The position numbers and the translations under genes were made by a program. The notes under the pieces are model-generated. The model was not told the DNA's origin. It saw only the letters and a list, made by a program, of their open reading frames with translations, and made no database searches. From positions 75,528 through 139,527 of the forward strand of contig JAHFKN010000001.1 of assembly GCA_023245355.1 (NCBI GenBank): a stretch of DNA of 64,000 nucleotides, read 5' to 3'. The stretch comes from Candidatus Gottesmanbacteria bacterium. Its GTDB lineage: Bacteria > Patescibacteriota > Microgenomatia > UBA10105 > UBA927. The stretch's first letter is position 1. Each line of letters begins with the position of its first letter. Shown here piece by piece: positions 25 to 43,235 of the stretch.

Positions 25-1026
25 TTAGATCGTGGGGTCTTGTTTCTTTTTCCGGAAGACATAGAGAAGTGCTCCTAGAAGGAGTATAGCACCCCCTATT
101 CCCAAGTTGCGAGCCACGGAAGATTTGGTTTCGGTCGTGGGTGTCTTGACTACTTCTGCACTCGGCGTCGTGTCGCCCAGAGTTTGTCCGCTTGTCCCCG
201 TCGGGCCCATGCTGCCGCTTACTGACGATTGGCCCAAGACACTTCCTCCCGCATTGGTGCCTCCGCTTACCGGGATTGCTCCCTGTGCCGGAGAACCGGT
301 CGGAGTGATAACCGTGATTGTGCTGACGTTGTCGCCGATAAGCGCTGAGCCGTTGCCGGCTGCATCAAATGCCCGCACTGCATAGTAAAACGTTTTGCTG
401 CAGTCAGGCGGCGTATCGGTTACGTTTTTGGCTTCATCGGATCCGATTGAGATGATCTGGATGCGCGATCCGTTATCCGCGTTAAACGGTACGGCATCGG
501 ACCGGTAGAGTTCTGCTTTGACCGTCGCGCCGCTGTCGTTTGCGGTTTTGAAGTGAATGGTATATTCACATGCGTTTGTTTTGTTTTTGCTGTAGTCGCG
601 CAGATCTCCCGGACCGCTTGTGTCGTAGGTCACAGTAGTCGTTTCGTCATCGAAGCTGTCTCCTGTTCCGTCTCCTGCCGTGGCTTCTACTTTGAACGCA
701 TAGGATCCCTCACCGTCATTCATCACGGAATTGTCTACTGCACAATTGCCGCTGTTTCCTCCGTTGGTAAATGTTTGGGCAGATCCGAACTGGGAGAATC
801 CGCCGTCTGACGGGCCTTTCTGGAAACATTTGACCGTGACAGTTCTTCCCTGCAGATCAAGTGCGACAAAACTCACGTTGAAGTTATTCTGATTTATCGG
901 CGATTTGGGCTGCTGGATTCTGACGCTGACATTTTTGGCAGCATATACCCTGCCTGTTACGGCAAGTGCTATCAATCCCGTCATAGTAAGAACGATAAGT
1001 TTTTTAAACATGGAGCCTCCGTGCAT
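25..1026 (-). CDS. Secreted cell-surface protein with N-terminal signal peptide and C-terminal hydrophobic anchor plus basic tail (no LPXTG)
   Basis: 333-aa ORF. The N-terminus MFKKLIVLTMTGLIALAVTG...VYA looks like a signal peptide. The C-terminus LGIGGAILLLGALLYVFRKKKQ is a TM helix followed by a basic tail. The body is Gly/Thr/Ser-rich with beta-rich segments. It lies immediately downstream of the giant LPXTG gene on the same strand. Confidence 0.5.
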   Translation of the reverse strand: MHGGSMFKKLIVLTMTGLIALAVTGRVYAAKNVSVRIQQPKSPINQNNFNVSFVALDLQGRTVTVKCFQKGPSDGGFSQFGSAQTFTNGGNSGNCAVDNSVMNDGEGSYAFKVEATAGDGTGDSFDDETTTVTYDTSGPGDLRDYSKNKTNACEYTIHFKTANDSGATVKAELYRSDAVPFNADNGSRIQIISIGSDEAKNVTDTPPDCSKTFYYAVRAFDAAGNGSALIGDNVSTITVITPTGSPAQGAIPVSGGTNAGGSVLGQSSVSGSMGPTGTSGQTLGDTTPSAEVVKTPTTETKSSVARNLGIGGAILLLGALLYVFRKKKQDPTI

Positions 1027-4000
1027 ATTTCCCGGCAGTTATTAATCCGATACCCATAAGGAACAGTAAGGCAGCAAAGGTAAGCCATGCCTCATCCGCA
1101 CCGGTTGCGGGAAGTTCGGTAGATGCTCCCAATACTTCGCCGGTTGTCGGATTCAGTGTGGCGCCGTTTTGCGTGCTCTTGACTACATTTACGCCGGTGC
1201 CTACGTGATTCGTTTCATCAATATATCCTGGGCTTACCGCAAGTGCGACTACGTCGTTGCCGTCGTTGACTGCACAGTTTGTTTCGAACTTGCATCCGTA
1301 TGCCCATGCCAGATCCTTGTACAATCCCGGCTTCTGGTCGACACTTATGTCGGCGATGTAGGTAAGGGTGACCTTCTCGTTCATGACCATATCTCCGAGG
1401 TTCCACACGCCCGGTGAATGATAGGTGGGTTCCGTCGTGATTCCGAGTGTCTTTAGGTCGCCGCGTGCCGTTGAATTGCTTGTCCATGAGCCTGCGCGGT
1501 ACGTAAACCCTCCGGCCGGCAGGTCGGTCACTACTACGTTGTATGCGGCACTCTGGGTTGCGGTAACCGTAAGGGTAAACAGCACGCTGTCTCCTGGTGC
1601 TTTATCTCCCGCTGCGTTGTTTTCTTTGGTAATCGTCAGAACCGGATTTAAGCGGTGATTTCCGACGACACAGCGCTGCGTTTCTCCCGGGGAAAGCGTA
1701 AATGTCCCGGTATCTGTAGTATCGTCTGCCGAATCATCAGCAAAGAAGTCTTCGTTTCTTCCGCAGCTTAGCTGTGTCTGCTCCCAGCCTTTTTGCAGAT
1801 TCTCGGTAAGCGTATACCGGCCGGCAAGCAGATTTTCAAATATGGCCTGCCCGTCATCATTGGTTGTTTCCTGTTCTTCGTCGCCGTTTAGATTCATTGT
1901 CCAGCCGGAAAGCACGTCTTCTCCTTCATCCCGGACTTTATTTCCGTTTTCATCGTTATATTTCGTCACGATGACCGTACCCCGTTTGGTATTGGTAAAC
2001 GTGCATGTGATCACTTCGCCGGCAGACAAATCCAATTCTCCGGCGACTTCTTGGTCTTCATGTGAACTTTGGCAGGACACATCGGTAAGATCCCATCCTG
2101 TTGGTACTGTTTCGGATACGGAATACCCTCCGGGCAATAAGGATTGGTCATTCGGTTCGTCCATATCTGCCAAATCGAAATTTTCGTAACCTTCCCCTGT
2201 TGCCGTAAATTCAAAGGATGTCAGATCTTCACTCGGGTCGGTTATTTTGTCTACGATGATGCGTCCGCGCTGCGTGTTGGTGAATACGCAGGTAATCGTC
2301 TCTCCCGGGTTGAGATGGAGGCTGTCAGCTGATTCCGAATCTTCGTTTGAACTCGTACACACCGTATTGGTGAGTGTCCAGCCGGACGGCTCCGTTTCCG
2401 ACACGCTGTAGGTTCCGGGAGTCAGGTATCCGCTGTCGTTTTGTCCGCCGTCTGCCAGTACAAATCCGCTTTCGTCATAGCTAGCTGCAAAGTTAAATTC
2501 CTTTTTGCTGCCGTCAGGATCGGTTTGTTTTTCCACAATAATCCGCCCTTGTTCATAATTTCCGATGGAACACGTGGTCGTTTGTCCGGCAGTTACCGTA
2601 ACAGGATGGCTGTTATCATTGTCTGTCGCCGTTTCACTTCCACAGGAGATATTCGATTGAAGCCAGCCTTCATTGATCTGCTCGCTTAATGTATAGGTAC
2701 CGGGAGTAAGATCACTGAACGTTACCTGGCCGTTTACGCTTGCGCCGGTAAACTGTGACATCTTATCCAAATGGATTTCCCATGAATTCAGCACCTCGTC
2801 ACCGGCATCTTTGGTGCCGTCCATATTATGGTCGTAGTATTTGATCACCGTGACATGACCGCGTTTGGTATTGGTTATCTCACAGGTTTTTGTTTCCCCT
2901 GCAGCGACGGCAACATCTGAACAAGTATTGCTCGTTTCATCCCAGTTACCGGGTACGGTTTCGCTTACGGAATAGGTGCCCGGAGTGACTTCGTAATTTT
3001 TGTCAGTATCGTCGCTTATAGATCCTGCTCCACCGCCGGTGATTGTGCCGGTGCCGGTAGCCAGAATACTGAATACATTGGCGTCATCTGCCGGAATAGT
3101 CGTTTTTTGTACAATGAGATGTCCGCGCTGCGTGTTGGTAAACGTGCACGTTACGGTTTCCCCCGCTGACAGACTGATAGCGTTTGGATTGCTTTGGTCG
3201 GAACAGCTGGTATCGGTGAGATCCCATCCTGTTACACCGGTTTCCGCGATACTGTATGTGCCTGGCATAAGATATCCGCTGTCATTTGTATGCCCGTCGG
3301 TTAATGAAAATCCGTTTGCATCATAGTCAGCTGTAAAGCCGAAACTCTGGGCACTTCCGTCGGGAAGCGTTTGCTTCTCTACAATAATTTTCCCCATATG
3401 CGTATTTACGAATGTATGGGAGTAGGTGTGCCCGTTTTCCAGCGTGCCGAAATCATGCGATGTGTCGCCAAGATGCTGCCAGCCTGTCTGTGATTCTTCC
3501 TGTGTGCTGTAACTTCCCGGGGAAAGATTGGTCCATGTGTAGCAGCCGTCTCTTCCGGTGACCTGCGCGTTGTCATACATCTGGCTGTTTTTCAGAAGAT
3601 CTACCTGCCATCCACTGACCGGTGTGCGGTCCGTGGTTGTGGTGAGACTGCCGTCGGCATCTTCCACTTTACACACGGTAACAGACATATTTTCGAAATT
3701 GGCGAAATTGATTTCCTTTGATTCCCCGCTTTGCACCGCAAACGGTGTAGGAGTCGGCGTCGGGCCGATGGTCTGTGTCCAGCCCGGTTTGAGCTGTTCC
3801 AAGACATAGTACGTTTTGTTTACGACAAGTCCCGTGAATTCATAATACCCGTCGGTCAATGTCGTATACGTTCCGAGTACGGCATGTGTCGTACCGTCAT
3901 ACAGATCAAATACCCACCCTGCAAGAGTCGCGTTAAGGTCATCTGCATCTAACGTGCCGTCTCCGTCGTTGTCACGGTATTTTACTCCGTAGATTTTGGC

Positions 4001-7000
4001 ATACCGCGTATTACCGAAATCTTTGCCGGTGTAGCTGCCGCCGCTTGTCACATCTACCTGATGATTCGGAGAGTTGCCCCCCGGAGACGTCTGGTACCAG
4101 ACCTTCGTATCGGGAATCGTTTCACTAATCGTGTAGGTGCCTGCCTGGCAGACTTTGAACGAGTATGCGCCATTTGCGTCCGTTACATCGCTCGCTACGG
4201 TGCCGTTTAAGTTGATTGTCCAGTTAGGAAGGGCGGGTTCACCGGCGTCTTTTACTCCGTCACCATCCAGGTCTTCCCATTTCATGCCGCTGATTGTCGC
4301 ACAGGCAAAGTTACCGAAATATACGATTTCATTTTGGCTTGATGTAAGCGTGACATTTTGTGATAAGAGCGTTGTATTGGACCAGTCAGTTTTGAGTGTT
4401 TCGGCTACGCTATACTGACCGGGAGACAGATTTGTAAATGTCGTACAGCCGTCACCACTGGTTGTTTGTGTGACATTTCCCGGGGTAAGCGTCATGCTCC
4501 AGTCATTCAGGAATGATTCAGATCCTTCCTTGGCTCCGTTTCCGTTGTGGTCATTATACTTACACGCTTCGATGCTGCGGAGTTTGGTGTTGGTAAAGGT
4601 ACAGGTCACGGTTTCCCCCGCTCCCACATCCAGATTGTCTGGTGTTTCACCGTTGTCGCACACGCCTCCGTCTGACGACCAGCCGGCAAGTGCGGTTTCG
4701 CTGACGGTATAGGCGCCCGGTACGACGACCTGATCATTTGATCCACCGTTTGCCAATGAAAATCCGGTATATCCTGCGCCAGTCGTCTCAAAGGTAAATG
4801 TATCGTCTGCTCCTGAAGTAATTTTCTTTACGATAATGTGACCCTTTTGGGTATTGGTGATGGTACAGGTTGAGCTTCCTCCGGCTGCGACTACGACATT
4901 AGTACATGTGTTGGAAGTTTCGGTCCAGCCCGTCGGTACAGTTTCGGTGACTGAATAGGTTCCTGCGGTTACTTCATAGTTTTGATCGGTGCTGTCAGTA
5001 ATGCTTCCTGCACCCCCGCCGGTGATCGTGCCCGTGCCGGTTGCATTTATGGTAAATGACTGTTGGCTTCCTGCCGGTACTGTAGTTTTTTGTACGATCA
5101 GATGACCATTTTGCTGAGTGTTGGTGAAGGTACAGGTTATAACTTCTCCCTCTGTTACCGATAATGTGGCTGTCCGCGTTCCAATATTAACGCTGCCGTT
5201 GGCGTCATCACAGGTAAGATTTGTAAGTGACCAGCCGCTTACTGTATTTTCTGTAATTGTTTTTGTATCTCCGTTATTAGCTGTAAAGGACGTTATAGTA
5301 AATACTTTTGTGTTTGAGAGCGTACTGTCAGAATCATCGTCAAGGGAAAAGTTCGATAATTCTGTTCCCGTCGTGGTAAAAGCAAAATCCTGAGCGTCGT
5401 TCGGAACTGCGTCTTTGACAATTGTGATCGTTGCAGGGTAAATGACAGCTTCAGACGCAAGAGACCTGTCCTGATTTCCGCCAGAGCCGTCCAAACCGCG
5501 CAGTCTCATGTGGTATGGAGATCCTGATATGGAGATGGCCGAGTTATTGGCTCCCCAATCGCTCCGGGTAGCTATATGACCACCCCATGCCAATACAGGA
5601 TTTGCAACAGACGGCGTAAATGTGATGGTGATTTGTGTCTCACTGTCACCGGTGTAAGGTGCTACTAAATTGTAAGCAGACACACCTGTAATCGTGCCTC
5701 CGAATAATGAGAAATTACCCGGAATTTGAGTGCCTGTCCAATTAGCGTCTGCCGGAATATTCGGATCAGCTGGAATAGGAAATGTGCTAGCAGGTCCGGA
5801 ACATCCTGATATACCTGAACACGGATCCGTTGTTTCAGTGCGGTCGTAGCTTGTCAGGTAATCAAGTGCATGTTTTCCTGCTTTTGTGGTATCCCAACCG
5901 ATAGTTACTGTATGAGAGGAGAGCGGCAGGTTGCCGAATTTCATACGATATGCGACCGAGTCTCCTTCAAAATAATCTGCTTGGTTGCCGTTCAAATTTC
6001 CGTTCTGCCAACCCATAGGGGCTTCATTTCCCCACTGATCAAGATCGGCGGAGGGATTACCTGAGGGTGAATTTGATACGGTAATAGCGCTAGTAAGCAC
6101 CAGAGCTGAGCTTGCACCATCAGTACACACGTTATCTTTAAAAGCCTGCACGGTTAAATCGTACGTTCCTAGAGTGTTAGGAGATGTAATATTAAAAGTT
6201 TCAGAGTAAGTGCCTGTTGAGGTGTGATCGTTATGATTTTTGCAACTAGTTGTTCCATTAATTGTCCAGGATGTTGCCTTCCAGTCATTATCAGTTCCGC
6301 TTCCTGAGGTTGTTACAGAAATCGCCATCGATACATTAGTAGACGGCGCGACGGTAACAGGTGTTCCTGAGGAGCTGGGGGATGGCGGAGTCCAGCTGGT
6401 TCCCCCATCTAAAGAGACAGAATCAATCGTTCGGCTATCGGTAAAAGTTGTAGTGGCGATTGCTTGACCGAGGTGATTTGTCACGACAACCTTGTAGTTG
6501 GGGCGGTAGATTCCGTCGAGTTGGTATGCGTACACAAATGCCCCGTGTGCGTCTGTCGTAATGGTATCGGTTGTTGAGGTTGCCGGTTCATCCGTGGAAC
6601 TTACAGTGATGTTGTAGCTGTGATTCGGTTTGAATCCCGTGCCGGTAATGATAGCCGTATCTGTGGGTGCATAATCCGCTTTGTCGGTTGTGAGTGACGC
6701 GCTGTTGGAAGGATCTATGTTATCCAGGTTCAGTGAGTTTGCTTCCACATTCTGCAATACAACAGCCTGCAGTTGCCCGTCTTCGGTAGGTTCCGGTGTA
6801 ACGGTCGGTGAGGGCGTAGCCGTAACGGAAGCGCCATCCAGAATCTGCCCCTGCTCCGGCGGTCCGGTTTCTTTCGGCGGTTCATTTGTTGTCGTTGCTG
6901 GCGTCGTTGTCTGGTCAGTCGGAGCCGGAGTAACTTCTTCTGTCGGTGTTGCAGTGGGTGTGGCGTCAGGTGTTGTTGTCGGAGTTACATCAATTGTTGG

Positions 7001-7243
7001 GGTAGGAGTTACAGTCTCTGTCGGAGCCGGTGTAACTTCTTCTGTCGGTGTTGCAGTGGGTGTGGCGTCAGGTGTTGTTGTGATTGTCGGATCCGGTGTC
7101 GGAACAGGAGTTACGGTAGGTGTTGCTTCCTGTGCAAATACTTGTGGGGTGAGATATTGAAAAACCGGAAGAATTGGTTGAATCAGCATGAGGATGCTGC
7201 TCAACACCGCAAAAATTTTATTCGCCCGTCTCAGGGTTTTCAT
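1004..7243 (-). CDS. Giant (2079 aa) sortase-anchored LPXTG surface protein/adhesin with about 14 CnaB/prealbumin-like (SdrD-B/DUF11-type) repeats and an N-terminal Thr/Pro-rich repeat stalk
   Basis: Signal peptide MKTLRRANKIFAVLSSILMLIQPILPVF...AQEA. The C-terminus has ELPATG, then a hydrophobic stretch (LTFAALLFLMGIGLITAG), then KYARRLHV, which is a canonical LPXTG sorting signal. Repeated modules end in ...TCTFTNT / ...TCEITNTKRG and carry G.Y.V.ET.P.GW cores, typical of Gram-positive CnaB-type fold repeats. Thr/Pro-rich repeats follow the signal peptide. Confidence 0.8.
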   Translation of the reverse strand: MKTLRRANKIFAVLSSILMLIQPILPVFQYLTPQVFAQEATPTVTPVPTPDPTITTTPDATPTATPTEEVTPAPTETVTPTPTIDVTPTTTPDATPTATPTEEVTPAPTDQTTTPATTTNEPPKETGPPEQGQILDGASVTATPSPTVTPEPTEDGQLQAVVLQNVEANSLNLDNIDPSNSASLTTDKADYAPTDTAIITGTGFKPNHSYNITVSSTDEPATSTTDTITTDAHGAFVYAYQLDGIYRPNYKVVVTNHLGQAIATTTFTDSRTIDSVSLDGGTSWTPPSPSSSGTPVTVAPSTNVSMAISVTTSGSGTDNDWKATSWTINGTTSCKNHNDHTSTGTYSETFNITSPNTLGTYDLTVQAFKDNVCTDGASSALVLTSAITVSNSPSGNPSADLDQWGNEAPMGWQNGNLNGNQADYFEGDSVAYRMKFGNLPLSSHTVTIGWDTTKAGKHALDYLTSYDRTETTDPCSGISGCSGPASTFPIPADPNIPADANWTGTQIPGNFSLFGGTITGVSAYNLVAPYTGDSETQITITFTPSVANPVLAWGGHIATRSDWGANNSAISISGSPYHMRLRGLDGSGGNQDRSLASEAVIYPATITIVKDAVPNDAQDFAFTTTGTELSNFSLDDDSDSTLSNTKVFTITSFTANNGDTKTITENTVSGWSLTNLTCDDANGSVNIGTRTATLSVTEGEVITCTFTNTQQNGHLIVQKTTVPAGSQQSFTINATGTGTITGGGAGSITDSTDQNYEVTAGTYSVTETVPTGWTETSNTCTNVVVAAGGSSTCTITNTQKGHIIVKKITSGADDTFTFETTGAGYTGFSLANGGSNDQVVVPGAYTVSETALAGWSSDGGVCDNGETPDNLDVGAGETVTCTFTNTKLRSIEACKYNDHNGNGAKEGSESFLNDWSMTLTPGNVTQTTSGDGCTTFTNLSPGQYSVAETLKTDWSNTTLLSQNVTLTSSQNEIVYFGNFACATISGMKWEDLDGDGVKDAGEPALPNWTINLNGTVASDVTDANGAYSFKVCQAGTYTISETIPDTKVWYQTSPGGNSPNHQVDVTSGGSYTGKDFGNTRYAKIYGVKYRDNDGDGTLDADDLNATLAGWVFDLYDGTTHAVLGTYTTLTDGYYEFTGLVVNKTYYVLEQLKPGWTQTIGPTPTPTPFAVQSGESKEINFANFENMSVTVCKVEDADGSLTTTTDRTPVSGWQVDLLKNSQMYDNAQVTGRDGCYTWTNLSPGSYSTQEESQTGWQHLGDTSHDFGTLENGHTYSHTFVNTHMGKIIVEKQTLPDGSAQSFGFTADYDANGFSLTDGHTNDSGYLMPGTYSIAETGVTGWDLTDTSCSDQSNPNAISLSAGETVTCTFTNTQRGHLIVQKTTIPADDANVFSILATGTGTITGGGAGSISDDTDKNYEVTPGTYSVSETVPGNWDETSNTCSDVAVAAGETKTCEITNTKRGHVTVIKYYDHNMDGTKDAGDEVLNSWEIHLDKMSQFTGASVNGQVTFSDLTPGTYTLSEQINEGWLQSNISCGSETATDNDNSHPVTVTAGQTTTCSIGNYEQGRIIVEKQTDPDGSKKEFNFAASYDESGFVLADGGQNDSGYLTPGTYSVSETEPSGWTLTNTVCTSSNEDSESADSLHLNPGETITCVFTNTQRGRIIVDKITDPSEDLTSFEFTATGEGYENFDLADMDEPNDQSLLPGGYSVSETVPTGWDLTDVSCQSSHEDQEVAGELDLSAGEVITCTFTNTKRGTVIVTKYNDENGNKVRDEGEDVLSGWTMNLNGDEEQETTNDDGQAIFENLLAGRYTLTENLQKGWEQTQLSCGRNEDFFADDSADDTTDTGTFTLSPGETQRCVVGNHRLNPVLTITKENNAAGDKAPGDSVLFTLTVTATQSAAYNVVVTDLPAGGFTYRAGSWTSNSTARGDLKTLGITTEPTYHSPGVWNLGDMVMNEKVTLTYIADISVDQKPGLYKDLAWAYGCKFETNCAVNDGNDVVALAVSPGYIDETNHVGTGVNVVKSTQNGATLNPTTGEVLGASTELPATGADEAWLTFAALLFLMGIGLITAGKYARRLHV
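6920..7081. repeat. Tandem direct repeat, period 102 bp (about 2 copies; 60-bp near-identical cores at 6920-6979 and 7022-7081), encoding the TPDATPTATPTEEVTPAPT stalk repeat of the giant surface protein
   Basis: Near-identical 60-bp blocks cggagccgg[a/t]gtaacttcttctgtcggtgttgcagtgggtgtggcgtcaggtgttgttgt, read directly from the sequence. Confidence 0.8.
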
Positions 7244-7393
7244 GAAATAAATTCGACCGCCTGCAATTATTTTGTATTATACAACCCTATAGCAAACTTT
7301 GTCAATGAATTAGTAATATATCTTACAATATGACTAATGGCGCTACTACGCCACAAACTAGAATTAATGTCGTATTACCTGATTATACCTGTG

Positions 7394-7447
7394 TGGATCG
7401 TGTAGGATTTGAACCTACGACATGTCCGATCCAATCGGACCGCTCTA
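7394..7447 (-). tRNA. tRNA-Pro(UGG) 3' portion (nt ~18-73: part of D arm, anticodon arm, variable loop, T arm, acceptor 3' strand ACGATCC + A73), detached from its 5' portion
   Basis: Minus-strand reading: ...TAGAGCGGTCCGATTGGATCGGACATGTCGTAGGTTCAAATCCTACACGATCCA. The anticodon loop is ATTGGAT, giving anticodon UGG. The T arm is GTAGG-TTCAAAT-CCTAC. The matching 5' acceptor strand GGATCGT is found 375 bp away at 7816-7822. Confidence 0.7.
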
Positions 7448-7454
7448 TCGGAAG

Positions 7455-7526
7455 TGGTCGGTGCAGGATTTGAACCTGCGACATCTGCAATGTGAATGCA
7501 GCGCTCTACCGCTGAGCTAACCGACC
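7455..7526 (-). tRNA. tRNA-Val(CAC)
   Basis: Minus strand: GGTCGGT TA GCTC AGCGGTA GAGC G CTGCA TTCACAT TGCAG ATGTC GCAGG TTCAAAT CCTGC ACCGACC A. The acceptor stem pairs perfectly and the anticodon loop gives CAC. Its first 10 nt overlap the last codons and stop of the GIY-YIG ORF. Confidence 0.8.
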
Positions 7527-7765
7527 CGAATTAACTCTTCAATGACTTTCCTGCTTTTTAATTTCTTTAGCTTACGCTCTTCTCTCTTAGCCTCAACAAT
7601 ATTTTCAAATTCCTTACTATATTTGATTATCCAAGGCCTGGTTGTTCGTGTGTATGGACTCTTGCCGTCGTTATGCTCTTTCAGCCTTCGTGTCAAATCG
7701 GTTGTTGAACCAATATAAAATCTATTATTTTTTGCGCTCTGTAAAATATACAGATAGCCTTTCAT
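7517..7765 (-). CDS. Small stand-alone GIY-YIG nuclease-domain protein (YhbQ/UPF0213-like), 82 aa
   Basis: MKGYLYILQSAKNNRFYIGSTTDLTRRLKEHNDGKS... matches the GIY-x10-YIG motif followed by the RRL.EHN signature of the GIY-YIG catalytic core. No extra DNA-binding domain is present. Confidence 0.8.
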   Translation of the reverse strand: MKGYLYILQSAKNNRFYIGSTTDLTRRLKEHNDGKSPYTRTTRPWIIKYSKEFENIVEAKREERKLKKLKSRKVIEELIRVG

Positions 7766-7774
7766 GAAAATTTA

Positions 7775-7822
7775 CGACATGTCCGATCCAATCGGACCGC
7801 TCTACCGCTGAGCTAACGATCC
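7775..7822 (-). tRNA. tRNA-Pro(UGG) 5' portion (nt 1-48: acceptor 5' strand, D arm, anticodon arm, variable loop), detached from T arm and 3' acceptor strand
   Basis: Minus strand: GGATCGT TA GCTC AGCGGTA GAGC G GTCCG ATTGGAT CGGAC ATGTCG. This is followed by TAAATTTTC and the ATG of the GIY-YIG ORF instead of a T arm. Confidence 0.7.
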
Positions 7823-7886
7823 TTTAAGGAATCATCATTATTATATACAGCTTACTGTGATGGGACAATAGTAAGGTATCCGCCCG

Positions 7887-8480
7887 TTAGCCGGCTGAAG
7901 TTGCCAGTGACCGTTCGTTGGAGAGGCCGAATGTTGTGCCGTGTTTCTTGAACATACCCCAGTACCCCATTTTCTTTTTTCGGGTGTTAAATGAGGCAAG
8001 CCATGTGCGGCTGTCCTCAACCTGTTCGCGGAGCACCTTGATAAATGTGCGCAACTGTTCGTAGAAGTTGAGGTGATACACGCCGGGATTTACCACTTCC
8101 TGGTTTACTGCACTCTGTACTTCCTGGTTCAGGTTCCGCAGGGAAGCAATAAGCGCCTTGAGTTCCGTGCGTATCATTTCCAGCTGCTGGCGTGTTTCCA
8201 TATCGATTTTTTCCGCATTCGGTTTGTGCTGCACTTCCGTGCGGACAGGAGCCTGAGCGACCGGCTCCGGGGTCTTTTCTCCGAATTCGATTGTCTGGTT
8301 GGGCTGCAGTTCACCGGATTTCGGCATGCCTCCAAGAAGTGAGGATACGATGTCTGTACCGATTTTGCCGAATTCTGCTACCGTGTTGGATCCCACGCTG
8401 GTAGGTACGGAACCTAACGCTTCGAGCACGTTATCGTTCTTGTAGTGCGTCGCTTTCTTTTTCGCGGAGGCTTGTATCAT
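7887..8480 (-). CDS. Hypothetical protein (197 aa), predicted coiled-coil
   Basis: Long ORF with no recognisable motif. The central region RQQLEMIRTELKALIASLRNLNQEVQ is heptad-like. Confidence 0.4.
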   Translation of the reverse strand: MIQASAKKKATHYKNDNVLEALGSVPTSVGSNTVAEFGKIGTDIVSSLLGGMPKSGELQPNQTIEFGEKTPEPVAQAPVRTEVQHKPNAEKIDMETRQQLEMIRTELKALIASLRNLNQEVQSAVNQEVVNPGVYHLNFYEQLRTFIKVLREQVEDSRTWLASFNTRKKKMGYWGMFKKHGTTFGLSNERSLATSAG

Positions 8481-8519
8481 AGCGCCTGCATTATACTACA
8501 GGGCAGCCTATTTGCAAAT

Positions 8520-10736: not shown

Positions 10737-10804
10737 TGCCGCTGAGAGGACTTGAACCTCTAAGCCTTACGGCATCCCGATCTGATCGGGACGTGTCTGT
10801 CGTG
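10737..10804 (-). pseudogene. 5'-truncated tRNA-Leu(CAG) fragment (anticodon arm, long variable arm, T arm, 3' acceptor strand; no 5' acceptor strand or D arm)
   Basis: Minus strand: ...CAGACACG TCCCG ATCAGAT CGGGA TGCCGTAAGGCTT AGAGG TTCAAGT CCTCT CAGCGGC A. The partner strand GCCGCTG is absent. The fragment abuts the 3' end of tRNA-Leu(UAG) with no spacer. Its 32 nt GCCGTAAGGCTTAGAGGTTCAAGTCCTCTCA are identical to tRNA-Leu(GAG) at 40820-40901. Confidence 0.6.
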
Positions 10805-10886
10805 TGCTCCCGAGAGGAATCGAACCTCTAAGGGTTACCCCATACGCTCCTAAAGCGTACGCGTCTGCCAATTTCGCCACGGGAGC
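10805..10886 (-). tRNA. tRNA-Leu(UAG)
   Basis: GCTCCCG...TACGC TTTAGGA GCGTA, a long variable arm, AGAGG TTCGATT CCTCT, then CGGGAGC A. The acceptor stem pairs perfectly. Confidence 0.75.
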
Positions 10887-18656: not shown

Positions 18657-18733
18657 CGGGGTGTGGCGCAATTGGCTAGCGCGCATCGTTTGGGACGATG
18701 AGGCTGAGAGTTCGAGTCTCTCCACCCCGACCA
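18657..18733 (+). tRNA. tRNA-Pro(UGG), intact, canonical bacterial C1:G72, CCA encoded
   Basis: CGGGGTG TG GCGC AATTGGCTA GCGC G CATCG TTTGGGA CGATG AGGCT GAGAG TTCGAGT CTCTC CACCCCG A CCA. Confidence 0.8.
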
Positions 18734-32220: not shown

Positions 32221-32338
32221 GTTGAACTTGAGGGAATTATTATCCTAACCAGGCTAAATGTCAACTAGATGTAGTCAGATAATTAACAGTTTGTGACAAA
32301 CCTAGAAAGTAAACCCTATCGGACATATAATAAGCTAT

Positions 32339-39213: not shown

Positions 39214-40828
39214 AAACCACAATAATACTAAGCTTCCTGCGTCTCCACGTTACATGATGTATTGCCGCAAAAGCAGTGAATCCGATGAGCGCCAGATTCA
39301 ATCATTACCAGATCAGATAACAAACTTGACTGCACTCATTAAACAAAGAGGTGTTGAACTTGTTGGCGAGCCATTACAAGAGCAGCGAACCGCAAAAATG
39401 CCGGGTAGACCGGTATTTGGAAAGCTTGTACAAATGATCGAGGATGGGGAGGTAAATACCATCGTGTTGCTTAATCCATCCCGCTTATCTAGAAATACCG
39501 TAGATACTGGTCGAATTATCTATCTCATGGATCAAGGAAAGTTGCTTGAAGTCGTTACTCCGTATCAATCGTTTCGTAATAATCCAAGCGATAAATTCAT
39601 GCTTAACCTGCTTTGTACGCAAGCTAAGCTCGAGAATGATAATAAAAGCGTCAATGTTACCGAAGCACTAAAGCTTAAAGCTGAACGCGGAGTGTTCCCA
39701 GGCAAAGCAAGGCCAGGATATAGAAATAATCATGAAAAACCTCAAGGACTACGAGATATCTCGCCACATCCCGTATATTTTCCACTTATGAGAAAGCTCT
39801 TTGACTTAGCTCTAACTGGCAACTACAGCGTTGAAGCTCTCATGCGGGAGGCCAAAATCCTTGGCATACGAAGTACCAAGTCTGGCAAACCGATTGTGAA
39901 AAGTTGGATGCATCGAATACTGCGAGACCCGTTCTATACCGGTCGGTTTATCTATAACAGCAAGCTCTATCAAGGACAGCATCAAGCCATGCTTACCGAC
40001 GCTGAGTTTAACTTGCTTCAAGATATATTGGACGGCAGATCCAAAGCCAGACTCCAAAAACATGATTTTGCACTCAATGGCATTATGAAGTGTGGAGAGT
40101 GTCATTATTGTATTACCGCTCAAGAGCATAAGAAAAAATACAAAAACGGCACAGAGCAGGTATTCGGTTACTATAACTGTACGAAGAAAGGAAATAACAA
40201 GTGCTCACAACCGTTTGTATCCACTTCCAAACTCGAAGGACAGTTTTCAAGTGATCTATCACACTTTGAGATTGAGGATAAAGAGTTTATAGATTGGGCA
40301 TATGAAGCACTCGAAGAAACCAGAGACAAGTATCATGAAGTCAATAAAACCAGCTCAGAAGCCCTCCAAACGGCTTTAGACGGTGTGAATCGCCGGATCG
40401 ATAATCTTATTGCCCTCAAAATTTCTCCTGAGAATGACGGAAGCCTCTTATCTGACTCAGAGTTTGGTGATAGAAAACGCGAACTCATGATGGAAAAGGA
40501 ACAAATTACAAGACAGTTGGCACTAGCAAATGCAAATGGTGACGAGTGGTCTGATGTTGCTAAAGACTCTTTTGAATTTGCGTTACTAGCTAAAGAACGA
40601 TTTGAAACCGGTGACTCTGAAGACAAAAAAGTGATATTCAAGGCAATCGGCTTGAACCCGATCTTACTAGATCAAAAACTGGAATATCAGCCTAGATTTG
40701 TCTTTATGAAGATGAAAGAGGTTGCGGAAACTATGAACGGCGGAAATGACCCGCTCGAACCCAAAAAAAGCCCGTCAGATCGCGAAAATCTGAAAAATTA
40801 TTTAAAAAGTACTGTATTGTGCGGGTGA
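39194..40828 (+). CDS. Large serine recombinase (phage-integrase-type resolvase/invertase family)
   Basis: YCRKSSESDERQIQSLPDQ holds the catalytic Ser in the resolvase N-domain. PSRLSRN follows. The recombinase domain has a zinc ribbon CGECHYC...YYNCTKK. A C-terminal coiled coil is present. The stop codon tga at 40826-40828 lies inside the tRNA-Leu(GAG) acceptor stem. Confidence 0.9.
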   Translation: MRLTDYKNHNNTKLPASPRYMMYCRKSSESDERQIQSLPDQITNLTALIKQRGVELVGEPLQEQRTAKMPGRPVFGKLVQMIEDGEVNTIVLLNPSRLSRNTVDTGRIIYLMDQGKLLEVVTPYQSFRNNPSDKFMLNLLCTQAKLENDNKSVNVTEALKLKAERGVFPGKARPGYRNNHEKPQGLRDISPHPVYFPLMRKLFDLALTGNYSVEALMREAKILGIRSTKSGKPIVKSWMHRILRDPFYTGRFIYNSKLYQGQHQAMLTDAEFNLLQDILDGRSKARLQKHDFALNGIMKCGECHYCITAQEHKKKYKNGTEQVFGYYNCTKKGNNKCSQPFVSTSKLEGQFSSDLSHFEIEDKEFIDWAYEALEETRDKYHEVNKTSSEALQTALDGVNRRIDNLIALKISPENDGSLLSDSEFGDRKRELMMEKEQITRQLALANANGDEWSDVAKDSFEFALLAKERFETGDSEDKKVIFKAIGLNPILLDQKLEYQPRFVFMKMKEVAETMNGGNDPLEPKKSPSDRENLKNYLKSTVLCG

Positions 40829-40901
40829 GAGGACTTGAACCTCTAAGCCTTACGGCACAGCCTCCTCAAGACTGCGTGTCTACCAGTTTCACCACACCCG
40901 C
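40820..40901 (-). tRNA. tRNA-Leu(GAG)
   Basis: GCGGGTG TG GTG AAACTGGTAG ACAC G CAGTC TTGAGGA GGCTG TGCCGTAAGGCTT AGAGG TTCAAGT CCTCT CACCCGC A. Confidence 0.8.
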
Positions 40902-42182: not shown

Positions 42183-42197
42183 GTAATGTATTATACA

Positions 42198-43235
42198 TTA
42201 ATGCAGGGAGTTGTGAACGATTTGGACAACGAAATCATCAAGCGTCATGCCGTGCGCTTTGATGCTTGCCGTCATCGCATCACGCGGATCAGGGTCAAAT
42301 CCGGCATTGGCATTGGCTTCCAGAAAATACCAGGTGTTTTCTTTGGTATTAAACCGCAGGTCAAAGCGGGCATAATCCCGTAGCCCCAAAGCATAAAAAG
42401 CACGGATAGAATCTTTGCGTATTCCCGTATCTATCCCCGCTTTGAGTTCCTTTGGCGGAGCGATGAAATGACAGCTTTGATACGCTGCGGTATTTTTGGT
42501 CCATTTCTCGTCGAACCCGTAAATATTCCATTTATTTTTACCCTTGCTGCGGAACGCAATTTCCGCGATAGGAAGCGCGTACGTTTTGGTCGGCGTCTCC
42601 AGAACGGTAACCTGCAGCTCTTTGCCTGCAATAAATTCCTCTGCCAGCAAGGCCTGCTTATGGGATTTACGCATGCGTTGTATGATTTTTACAAATTGCT
42701 GGTAGGTTGTGGCAATCGATTGATTGGTAATGCCGATGCTGCAATGCTCGAACGCGGGTTTGACAATGACGGGAAATTTACCGGGCAGCAATTTTCTGCT
42801 GATGCGGTCTTTAAGATGTATGACGGTATATTTTGGGGTGGGCAGCGCATTTTTTTCAAACAACCGTTTCGTTTTCAACTTGTTATTGGAAATCTGAATG
42901 GCTTTAAACGATGAACCGGAATACGGTATATGCAGTCTTCCCAGAATTTTCGCGATTTCCACTTCCATTTTTTTGCTGTCGACAAGATTAAAAACGAAAT
43001 CCGCCTTTAATTGTTTCAACTCTGACAGGTCATCGGGTTTTACTTTGATAATTTGCACGTTATATCCGCGTTTCTTAAACAGCACGCGCATATAGTTGAC
43101 GATATCATCGGTCTGATTATCGACAAGTGCGTGTTGTGAACTGAAATAGGTATCCGTGATATCCTTGGGCACGTAGTGATACAGGATAGCGATCGTAAAT
43201 CTTTTTTTTGCCCGCACTCTTTTTTTGGTTTTCAT
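42198..43235 (-). CDS. ATP-grasp enzyme, D-alanine--D-alanine ligase-like
   Basis: The ATP-grasp C-terminal motifs are RFDLRFNTKENTWYFLEANANAGF. A preceding Ddl_N-like region is present. Confidence 0.5.
   Translation of the reverse strand: MKTKKRVRAKKRFTIAILYHYVPKDITDTYFSSQHALVDNQTDDIVNYMRVLFKKRGYNVQIIKVKPDDLSELKQLKADFVFNLVDSKKMEVEIAKILGRLHIPYSGSSFKAIQISNNKLKTKRLFEKNALPTPKYTVIHLKDRISRKLLPGKFPVIVKPAFEHCSIGITNQSIATTYQQFVKIIQRMRKSHKQALLAEEFIAGKELQVTVLETPTKTYALPIAEIAFRSKGKNKWNIYGFDEKWTKNTAAYQSCHFIAPPKELKAGIDTGIRKDSIRAFYALGLRDYARFDLRFNTKENTWYFLEANANAGFDPDPRDAMTASIKAHGMTLDDFVVQIVHNSLH

Follow-up and report, generated by a model that had tools for sequence, protein, structure and literature searches.

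The window analysed here, a stretch of 64,000 nucleotides (nt) of a Candidatus Gottesmanbacteria genome (contig JAHFKN010000001.1, positions 75,528 to 139,527), contains a tRNA gene that is split by a short insertion encoding a small GIY-YIG nuclease and a complete tRNA-Val(CAC). The unit is read on the minus strand, where a promoter-like site is followed by a tRNA 5' piece, a spacer, the GIY-YIG open reading frame (ORF), the tRNA-Val(CAC), a second spacer and a tRNA 3' piece. All positions are window coordinates, and L-numbers are the labels of related loci. The interrupted gene is called the resident tRNA, the complete tRNA of the insertion is called the cargo tRNA, and the palindrome found in both pieces is called H. 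The locus is composed as follows:

7840-7868, minus strand: promoter of the resident tRNA (-35 TTGTCC, 17-nt spacer, -10 TATAAT; promoter scan, matches 10/12)
7773-7822, minus strand: tRNA 5' piece, GGATCGTTAGCTCAGCGGTAGAGCGGTCCGATTGGATCGGACATGTCGTA, remnant of the resident tRNA-Val(CAC)
7773-7804, minus strand: first copy of the 32-nt direct repeat, TAGAGCGGTCCGATTGGATCGGACATGTCGTA, exactly identical to the second
7781-7797, minus strand: first copy of palindrome H, GTCCGAT-TGG-ATCGGAC, with a 7-bp stem and a 3-nt loop, at the anticodon-arm position
7766-7772, minus strand: spacer 1, AATTTTC, ahead of the ATG (direct reading)
7517-7765, minus strand: GIY-YIG nuclease ORF, 82 amino acids (aa), UPF0213/Slx1 type (Pfam PF01541, E=5.2e-16)
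7454-7526, minus strand: complete cargo tRNA-Val(CAC) (ARAGORN; Rfam, 73.5 bits)
7448-7453, minus strand: spacer 2, CTTCCGA (with the C at 7454 counted), identical in L083 and different in L084
7394-7447, minus strand: tRNA 3' piece, remnant of the resident tRNA-Val(CAC)
7416-7447, minus strand: second copy of the 32-nt direct repeat, TAGAGCGGTCCGATTGGATCGGACATGTCGTA, exactly identical to the first
7424-7440, minus strand: second copy of palindrome H, GTCCGAT-TGG-ATCGGAC, with a 7-bp stem and a 3-nt loop

The coordinates that an earlier reading of the sequence (the original prediction) had assigned to the pieces and the 32-nt repeat all hold on the minus strand. The 5' piece (GGATCGT TA GCTC AGCGGTA GAGC G GTCCG ATTGGAT CGGAC ATGTC GTA) comprises the acceptor 5' strand GGATCGT, the D arm, the palindrome in place of the anticodon arm, ATGTC and the first three nucleotides (GTA) of the T stem. 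The 3' piece (TAGAGC G GTCCG ATTGGAT CGGAC ATGTC GTAGG TTCAAAT CCTAC ACGATCC A) comprises the 3' strand of the D stem, the palindrome, the variable loop ATGTC, the T arm GTAGG/CCTAC, the acceptor 3' strand ACGATCC and A73. The two copies of the 32-mer lie 357 nt apart, and no further copy, even as 14-mers, is present in the window. As had been predicted, neither copy belongs to a complete tRNA: neither ARAGORN nor Rfam calls a tRNA on the 5' or the 3' piece, and tRNA-Val is the only tRNA called at the locus. Joined in silico at the repeat, the pieces form a canonical cloverleaf that ARAGORN names tRNA-Pro(tgg). Spacer 1 may represent what is left of a T arm after degeneration (GTAAATTTTCATG versus GTAGGTTCAAATC); the ATG of L085 directly adjoins the T loop (GGTTCAA-ATG). 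An assembly artefact can be ruled out, since the architecture recurs in independent assemblies of the organism (L081, L082) as well as in its diverged relatives L083, L084 and L085.

The ORF has no stop codon of its own. Its TAG is U8-A9-G10 of the cargo tRNA, its last codons and this TAG are nucleotides 1-10 of that tRNA, and the tRNA 5' strand thus encodes the C-terminus of the protein (...RVG). The ORF and the tRNA are therefore physically coupled and constitute one cassette, in which processing of the cargo tRNA by RNase P would remove the stop codon of the ORF. The 82-aa protein belongs to the GIY-YIG superfamily (PF01541 at residues 2-72) and is a bare catalytic core. Among profiles of PDB structures, it matches the UPF0213 proteins BH0048 (1zg2, E=3e-14) and EF2693 (1ywl, 2e-11), then Slx1 nuclease domains (4e-6) and, weakly, I-TevI; NCBIfam and PHROGs return weak homing-endonuclease matches to its N-terminal motif. 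The residues Y6, Y17, I18, G19, R27, H31 and E63, which include the catalytic ones, are invariant in 42 homologues, and the ratio of nonsynonymous to synonymous divergence (dN/dS) of 0.11-0.24 reveals purifying selection. Because of this low ratio and of the invariant catalytic residues, the ORF is judged to be functional.

Identity of the interrupted gene

Syntenic contigs were reached through homologues of the upstream DUF5660 protein. Four independent assemblies (L176-L179), in which the DUF5660 and trigger factor proteins are 97.5% and 97.2% identical to those of the window, share with the window the promoter to the left of the locus and, to the right, the intergenic region together with the giant surface-protein gene; between these flanks they carry a single uninterrupted tRNA-Val(CAC), GGATCGTTAGCTCAGCGGTAGAGCGCTGCATTCACATTGCAGATGTCGTAGGTTCAAATCCTACACGATCCA. 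The same intact tRNA-Val(CAC) occupies the locus in L167 (DUF5660 84% identical), again behind the same promoter, and no GIY-YIG ORF or palindrome H is found near the tRNA at any of these loci. The resident tRNA promoter now drives the whole unit of the filled allele, ORF included. The filled allele is 357 nt longer than the empty one. Outside the 17-nt anticodon arm, the intact tRNA of the relatives is identical to the joined pieces of the window at 55/55 positions; the gene that was interrupted is therefore the resident tRNA-Val(CAC). An uninterrupted tRNA at this locus in relatives, for which the original prediction had asked, thus exists, but as tRNA-Val(CAC) and not as the tRNA-Pro(UGG) that had been named as the target.

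The canonical cloverleaf of the joined pieces, with its UGG anticodon, and the exactness of the flanking repeat had spoken for a transposition-like insertion into a tRNA-Pro(UGG) gene, with duplication of 32 bp of the target. The empty-site alleles refute this account, which has next to no chance of being right: the orthologous intact gene is tRNA-Val(CAC), and the duplicated segment includes sequence that is not resident. Furthermore, the pieces share with Val genes the D arm, the ATGTC variable loop and the TTCAAAT T loop, but have nothing specific in common with the genuine tRNA-Pro(UGG), to which they are unrelated in every arm. The latter is a separate, intact gene, found by ARAGORN at 18657-18733 as predicted. 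The base pair G1:C72, described as unusual for a tRNA-Pro, is indeed present, and is explained by the gene being a tRNA-Val.

The original prediction had raised a permuted or split tRNA as another reading of the locus; at the RNA level, the halves of such a tRNA, or of one with an intron, would be joined after transcription into a functional molecule. The acceptor strands of the two pieces of the window are fully complementary, RNAfold pairs these strands with each other and palindrome with palindrome (z-score -3.9), and both pieces are strongly conserved with respect to L083. However, the complementarity is inherited from a single resident gene and is missing in L085, L008 and L001, where the acceptor strands are non-complementary, and two copies of a palindrome pair by construction; the long-range pairing was consequently rejected as evidence, since it follows automatically from two palindrome copies and two halves of one gene. 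If the pieces were joined, the arm of the product would consist of 7 bp and a loop of 3 nt, and the loop length is non-canonical in most relatives. A covariance search of positions 7300-7900 with Rfam at E<=1 returned no group I intron or other ribozyme model, but only the tRNA-Val and spurious antisense-tRNA hits. Taken with the duplication of 32 nt, this agrees with the original prediction that the insertion is not a group I intron, and joining at the RNA level is very hard to credit. The same search gave two plus-strand matches below the gathering score to the model Plastid-ycf2 5'UTR (7393-7432 and 7454-7526), antisense to the 3' piece and to the tRNA-Val; this model evidently resembles an antisense tRNA, and both matches were disregarded.

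Palindrome H and the 32-nt repeat

The anticodon arm of the resident tRNA, CTGCA-TTCACAT-TGCAG, is missing from both pieces, and both copies of the 32-nt repeat hold the non-resident palindrome instead. The repeat is therefore not a target-site duplication produced by staggered cutting, and must come from a donor that already bore H on both sides. The exactness of the duplication at the two junctions, as first described, stands, but not its derivation from a segment of the target tRNA. Likewise, a cut-and-paste transposon would duplicate resident sequence of fixed length, whereas the repeat contains a 17-nt non-resident palindrome and extends over 20 to 46 nt at different loci. A symmetric staggered-cut model, suggested by the roughly central position of the palindrome in the 32-bp repeat, was considered and is ruled out by the empty sites without palindrome.

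Exact repeats were detected at 45/167 homologous ORFs only, some of them T-arm repeats, and the copies often differ, so that a hairpin-based search was more informative. Among 150 hairpins located beside homologous ORFs and outside called tRNAs, the stem core CSGAY...RTCSG is present in 124; the length of a real anticodon arm (17 nt) is found in only 18 and a length of 18 nt in 87, with 45 different loops. The loop also differs between relatives of the window (CCG in L001, CGG and CCG in L085, GC in L002, TTG in L034, and others). A stem conserved across phyla and tRNA types, with a loop variable in sequence and length, is the opposite of what a working anticodon arm would display, and H is therefore considered to be a cassette-borne, sequence-constrained palindrome. 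Its 'UGG' loop, originally taken for the anticodon, is incidental and represents one loop variant. An extended GC-rich hairpin in the context tagagcN-H-aggtc lies upstream of 134/174 ORFs and downstream of 130/174, and hairpin density reaches 3.4 per kb beside the ORFs versus 0.64 per kb elsewhere in the loci.

Palindrome H must serve the cassette in some way, and three candidate roles can be put forward: (i) a recognition or cleavage site of the nuclease, since a palindromic site would suit a dimer or a structure-specific, Slx1-like enzyme, and GTCCGATTGGATCGGAC is conceivable as a duplex, a hairpin or a cruciform; (ii) an autoregulatory operator, since in the gene order of the window H ends 13-16 nt before the ATG; and (iii) a block to functional restoration, since deletion from repeat to repeat would remove the cargo and leave a dead tRNA gene.

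The palindrome could also be understood as the core of an att-like site, at which a circular intermediate [palindrome-ORF-tRNA] would integrate and excise by site-specific recombination; an Slx1-like structure-specific nuclease acting on the extruded hairpin or cruciform would catalyse or trigger the reaction, and the circle junction would read ...ACCGACCACTTCCGA-TAGAGCGGTCCGATTGGATCGGACATGTCGTA-AATTTTCATG. The direct repeats of 32 nt, exact and with a perfect palindrome at their centre, the conservation of the stem across phyla with a variable loop, the existence of both gene orders, as circular permutation would give, and the position of Slx1 structure-specific nucleases as the closest solved relatives after UPF0213 are in agreement with such a process. 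It is nevertheless an unlikely one: the insert encodes no recombinase, the repeat boundaries vary between loci, and excision would leave a dead, palindrome-bearing tRNA-like gene, whereas the empty sites have a normal anticodon arm. To our knowledge, no GIY-YIG enzyme rejoins DNA, which also counts against this explanation.

Distribution and probable mobility of the cassette

The cassette is present in some lineages and absent from others at one and the same locus, being found in the window, L083 and L084 and lacking in L176-L179 and L167, as is typical of homing elements. Over 1443 nt of the trigger factor and DUF5660 genes, three host lineages are approximately equidistant (window-L083 91.6%, window-L178 89.9% and L083-L178 89.2% identity), and two of them, the window and L083, are filled whereas L178 is empty. 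In its left flank, the filled locus L084 is 94.7% identical to the empty lineage, its nearest match, and 86.6% identical to the window. Synonymous divergence (dS) of the ORF amounts to 0.20 between the window and L084, 0.76 between the window and L083, and 0.81 between L083 and L084, for a neighbour-gene dS of 0.42-0.47 between the window and L083. The divergence of the ORF thus does not follow that of the hosts; such discordance and mosaic flanks, observed here in a small sample of three filled lineages, are likewise characteristic of homing elements. Locus L084 is itself recombinant: its 5' piece, its ORF and the first two thirds of its cargo tRNA are window-like, and its tRNA T stem, spacer 2 and 3' piece (loop CCG) resemble those of L001 and L085.

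Decay is represented by L166, which has no ORF and carries a further tRNA-Val(CAC) allele amid fragments of two other allele types, including a resident-type 3' end. In this 'graveyard' (L166, 2595-2960), a complete tRNA-Val(CAC), which represents a fourth allele type, is accompanied by a tRNA 5' fragment, a GC-rich insert, 14 nt of an anticodon arm like that of L168/L169, and the resident-type 3' end, ahead of which lies a decayed hairpin. At this one syntenic locus, the resident tRNA-Val(CAC) genes of close relatives display four different acceptor stems (GGATCGT, GGGCGCA, GCTCGCG and GGACCTG). Polymorphism, discordance, mosaicism and decay are the traces expected from a homing cycle of invasion, recombination and decay.

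The cargo tRNA has an acceptor stem, GGTCGGT/ACCGACC, that is foreign to the locus and is kept with the ORF in the window, L083, L084, L085 and L001, although the hosts of L001 and L085 are only 43-52% identical to that of the window in DUF5660. Together with the uninterrupted locus of the relatives, this bears out the prediction that a miniature GIY-YIG element with its own tRNA-Val(CAC) has inserted into a tRNA gene. In the window, 20 nt of the D arm are identical between resident and cargo tRNA, and the cargo tRNA is a mosaic of a cassette-type acceptor stem and a resident-type anticodon arm and variable loop. Such a mosaic points to gene conversion in patches between the three tRNA-like copies that adjoin each other.

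The window and L083 are identical at 50/50 positions of the 5' piece and 54/54 of the 3' piece, and with spacer 2 no change is found in 110 nt, for ORFs that differ at 40/239 nt. The resident-derived parts of the pieces may have stayed unchanged because of recent homing into a functional, conserved tRNA gene; since recent homing explains these parts equally well, the absence of changes was not retained as a sign of RNA function.

Pattern scans based on an alignment of 14 sequences yielded 97 confirmed loci in species-representative genomes and 215 in metagenome contigs, of which 80 each were kept. Other GIY-YIG and tRNA modules, for which a search had been proposed, are frequent: among the 156 homologous ORFs with adequate flanks, 128 have a complete same-strand tRNA within 30 nt. 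Of the same 156 ORFs, 65 run into the 5' end of the tRNA, with the stop codon typically at tRNA nt 8-10, 40 start within 30 nt of a tRNA 3' end, and 109 end in TAG. Most of them also have an H-type palindrome on at least one side. The partners represent 28 tRNA species. The partner anticodon is the same in 41/41 ORF pairs that are at least 80% identical and in 9% at 50-59% identity, and some ORFs of 70-74% identity adjoin Lys, Val, His, Gly or Ala tRNA genes, so targets would switch occasionally. Beside the ORFs are incomplete tRNA copies, which comprise nt 1 to ~25 on the upstream side or nt 44/45-75 on the downstream side and are often 100% identical to the adjacent complete tRNA. Both gene orders occur, namely 5' piece-ORF-tRNA-3' piece (window, L013, L049, L056, L085) and 5' piece-tRNA-ORF-3' piece (L008, L024). 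The family is thus widespread and linked to tRNAs, and has apparently gone unrecognised: searches of the literature turned up no publication in which UPF0213-type GIY-YIG genes are joined to tRNAs, or in which palindrome-bearing tRNA pieces or bacterial tRNA-replacement cassettes are described. It is essentially absent from the phage, plasmid and IMG/VR collections searched, where only distant YazA-like genes or partial matches, and no vector, were found.

Some loci have a particular organisation. A tandem array in L003 (3584-4340) comprises a tRNA-Thr(GGT), a first ORF, a 3' piece with hairpin, a second ORF and a further 3' piece with hairpin; each ORF begins 3 nt past an acceptor end and ends in the TAG of TAGAGC, and a third, more divergent ORF follows a tRNA-Ser. 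In L045 (3890-3966), ARAGORN calls a 77-nt 'tRNA-Ser(tga)' that is a contiguous palindrome-bearing scaffold with GCTCCGACTTGAAGTCGGAG at the anticodon-arm position. The window itself contains, at 10737-10797 (minus strand), a second palindrome-bearing tRNA relic without ORF, located 6 nt downstream of a tRNA-Leu(TAG) (10804-10886) and reading GACACG-TCCCGAT-CAG-ATCGGGA-TGCCGTAAGGCT-TAGAGG-TTCAAGT-CCTCT-CAGCGGC-A. It is a tRNA-Leu-like 3' piece with an H-type hairpin for anticodon arm, its variable and T arms match those of tRNA-Leu(GAG) (40819-40901), and it is probably the remnant of a lost cassette.

An account without mobility would see in the ORF a domesticated UPF0213-type GIY-YIG protein with a tRNA-related host role, in the palindrome-bearing pieces its cis-acting or RNA partners, and in the empty sites deletions from a vertically inherited state. 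Several observations would suit it: the purifying selection on the ORF (dN/dS 0.11), the lack of change in the 110 nt of pieces and spacer 2 at a neighbour-gene dS of ~0.45, the conservation of the order trigger factor - DUF5660 - [GIY-YIG + tRNA-Val] in distant Microgenomates, the near absence of the family from mobile-element collections, and the overlap of the UPF0213 gene yazA with trmNF and rsmI in the operon trmNF-yazA-rsmI of Bacillus subtilis (L174, 1753-3635) and Listeria (L175, 1744-3630). The gene trmNF codes for the tRNA1(Val) adenine37-N6 (m6A37) methyltransferase, and this link to the biology of the tRNA-Val anticodon loop may be a coincidence or a hint of an RNA-related role. 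Vertical inheritance, however, agrees poorly with presence/absence polymorphism among lineages 97% identical in neighbour proteins, with the discordance between ORF and host divergence and the mosaic L084, with the serial replacement of tRNA-Val alleles that left fragment graveyards, with several tandem copies at loci such as L003, and with partners drawn from 28 tRNA species with occasional switches. Domestication is therefore regarded as improbable.

A proposed homing-type mechanism and known systems

The most probable explanation, held with reasonable but not high confidence, is that of a homing-type cassette composed of a nuclease and a cargo tRNA, which overwrites resident tRNA genes by homology-directed repair. 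Here, a selfish cassette of ~360 bp, bracketed by two copies of the palindrome, would have overwritten the resident tRNA-Val(CAC) of a Microgenomates (Gottesmanbacteria-like) bacterium of the candidate phyla radiation (CPR). In brief, the nuclease would break a naive tRNA gene, and the break would be repaired from a cassette-bearing copy, with the near-universal D-arm and variable-loop/T-arm sequences serving as homology arms. The outer ends of the resident gene would survive, the anticodon arm being replaced on both sides by the donor palindrome, and the cargo tRNA would take over decoding. Transcription would start from the resident tRNA promoter, and the ORF would terminate in the TAG of the tRNA. 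Crossovers at different tRNA-like segments could generate the variety of architectures. Since the outer parts of the pieces would come from the recipient's own tRNA, they would be identical to the intact allele, and across lineages, without selection after insertion. Site-specific DNase activity of the protein and its target are proposed here by analogy with the phage T4 enzyme SegB.

Several points weigh against a homing-type cassette. The palindromes and spacer 2, unchanged between the window and L083, would be donor-derived and need an additional constraint. The presence of the ORF at the same syntenic locus in distant Microgenomates could mean long-term residence or domestication. The empty allele could derive from the filled one if the three tRNA-like copies underwent two homologous crossovers, one within the 20 identical nt of the D arm and the other where variable loop and T loop are identical. 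Moreover, cargo tRNA and naive target do not differ in the anticodon arm; if the nuclease recognised this arm alone, it would cut in the host too, and immunity would need a site also spanning the acceptor or T stem. Finally, the homing GIY-YIG enzymes known to us have separate DNA-binding domains, whereas the 82-aa protein consists of the catalytic domain only.

SegB is the closest precedent for the principle. This GIY-YIG endonuclease recognises a 27-bp site containing a tRNA T-loop motif and cuts at the 3' ends of tRNA genes, and its homing spreads its own gene and neighbouring tRNA genes, displacing the tRNA region of the recipient (PMC2330249). As in the cassette, a free-standing GIY-YIG gene is located amid tRNA genes. 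However, SegB is a longer, multi-domain phage homing endonuclease encoded between intact tRNA genes, whereas the cassette lies in a cellular chromosome and encodes a putative nuclease of UPF0213/Slx1 type, an 82-aa catalytic core; ORF and cargo tRNA are fused, the resident gene is split into overlapping pieces, and conserved palindromes bracket the insertion. A second parallel is provided by free-standing homing-endonuclease ORFs of fungal mitochondria, such as that of Allomyces atp6, which insert at the end of a gene and bring a replacement of the displaced part. Like the cassette, they disrupt an essential gene, supply a working substitute and leave the displaced fragment as a partial duplicate; their targets are protein genes of which only the displaced terminus is duplicated, whereas the cassette brings a whole replacement tRNA and both resident ends remain.

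Other systems are less similar. Integrase-driven islands and prophages in tRNA genes also generate direct repeats of tRNA sequence and leave tRNA fragments behind (bioRxiv 10.1101/2022.07.05.498093). They measure 9-23 kb or more, depend on tyrosine or serine recombinases, repeat the tRNA 3' end and regenerate the tRNA, unlike the 357-bp insert, in which no tyrosine or serine recombinase but only the GIY-YIG ORF and the tRNA are found, the repeat has an internal position (D stem, palindrome, variable loop) and no resident tRNA is restored. Within the same phylum, the Patescibacteria, tRNA genes can contain group I introns, which gene finders miss and some of which carry homing endonuclease genes (PMC13011429). 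Such introns are self-splicing and inserted in the anticodon loop without exon duplication, whereas the cassette matches no ribozyme, duplicates part of the exon and replaces the anticodon arm. The UPF0213 proteins BH0048, EF2693 and B. subtilis YazA (96-107 aa) resemble the 82-aa protein in size and in having no obvious extra DNA-binding domain, but the Firmicutes genes are single-copy, belong to the housekeeping operon mentioned above and are not beside tRNA genes. Slx1 requires Slx4 and has a RING domain, unlike the cassette protein.

If correct, the homing-type explanation would mean that minimal selfish cassettes with their own tRNA horizontally overwrite tRNA genes in reduced CPR genomes. 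It would extend the SegB principle of a tRNA-gene-targeting nuclease that spreads tRNA cargo from T-even phages to cellular chromosomes, and would give the uncharacterised UPF0213 GIY-YIG proteins a specific activity and substrate that can be tested. For genome annotation, flanking pieces or solo palindrome scaffolds can be miscalled as tRNAs with spurious anticodons; the joined pieces pass for Pro(UGG), and the scaffold of L045 passes for Ser(UGA).

A wider proposal, offered tentatively and with clearly less confidence, is that the cassette belongs to a large undescribed class of autonomous tRNA-replacement cassettes of ~330-450 bp, present in CPR and several other phyla, in which a minimal UPF0213/Slx1-type nuclease gene lacking its own stop codon is joined to a cargo tRNA and flanked by a conserved palindrome that stands in for the resident anticodon arm, and whose nuclease acts on the palindrome. 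Action on the palindrome as duplex, hairpin or cruciform would drive copying into cognate tRNA genes, and loss of the resident anticodon arm would make the host dependent on the cargo tRNA. Were this so, tRNA genes would undergo continual horizontal turnover, the cassettes would be among the smallest self-mobilising DNA elements known, and the UPF0213 proteins would receive their first assigned activity.

Directly downstream of the unit, a gene at 1004-7243 (minus strand) codes for a surface protein of 2079 aa that has repeated SpaA/SdrD-type domains and carries a membrane anchor at its C-terminus. The tRNA-Val locus is a synteny break, the downstream genes being different in the relatives L167-L170. 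In the window, a Shine-Dalgarno-like motif precedes only 11/45 long ORFs, and many have a TATAAT 7-10 nt before the ATG (e.g. 8481-8502, 32317-32338 and 42183-42204), which suggests that mRNAs are widely leaderless in the source organism.

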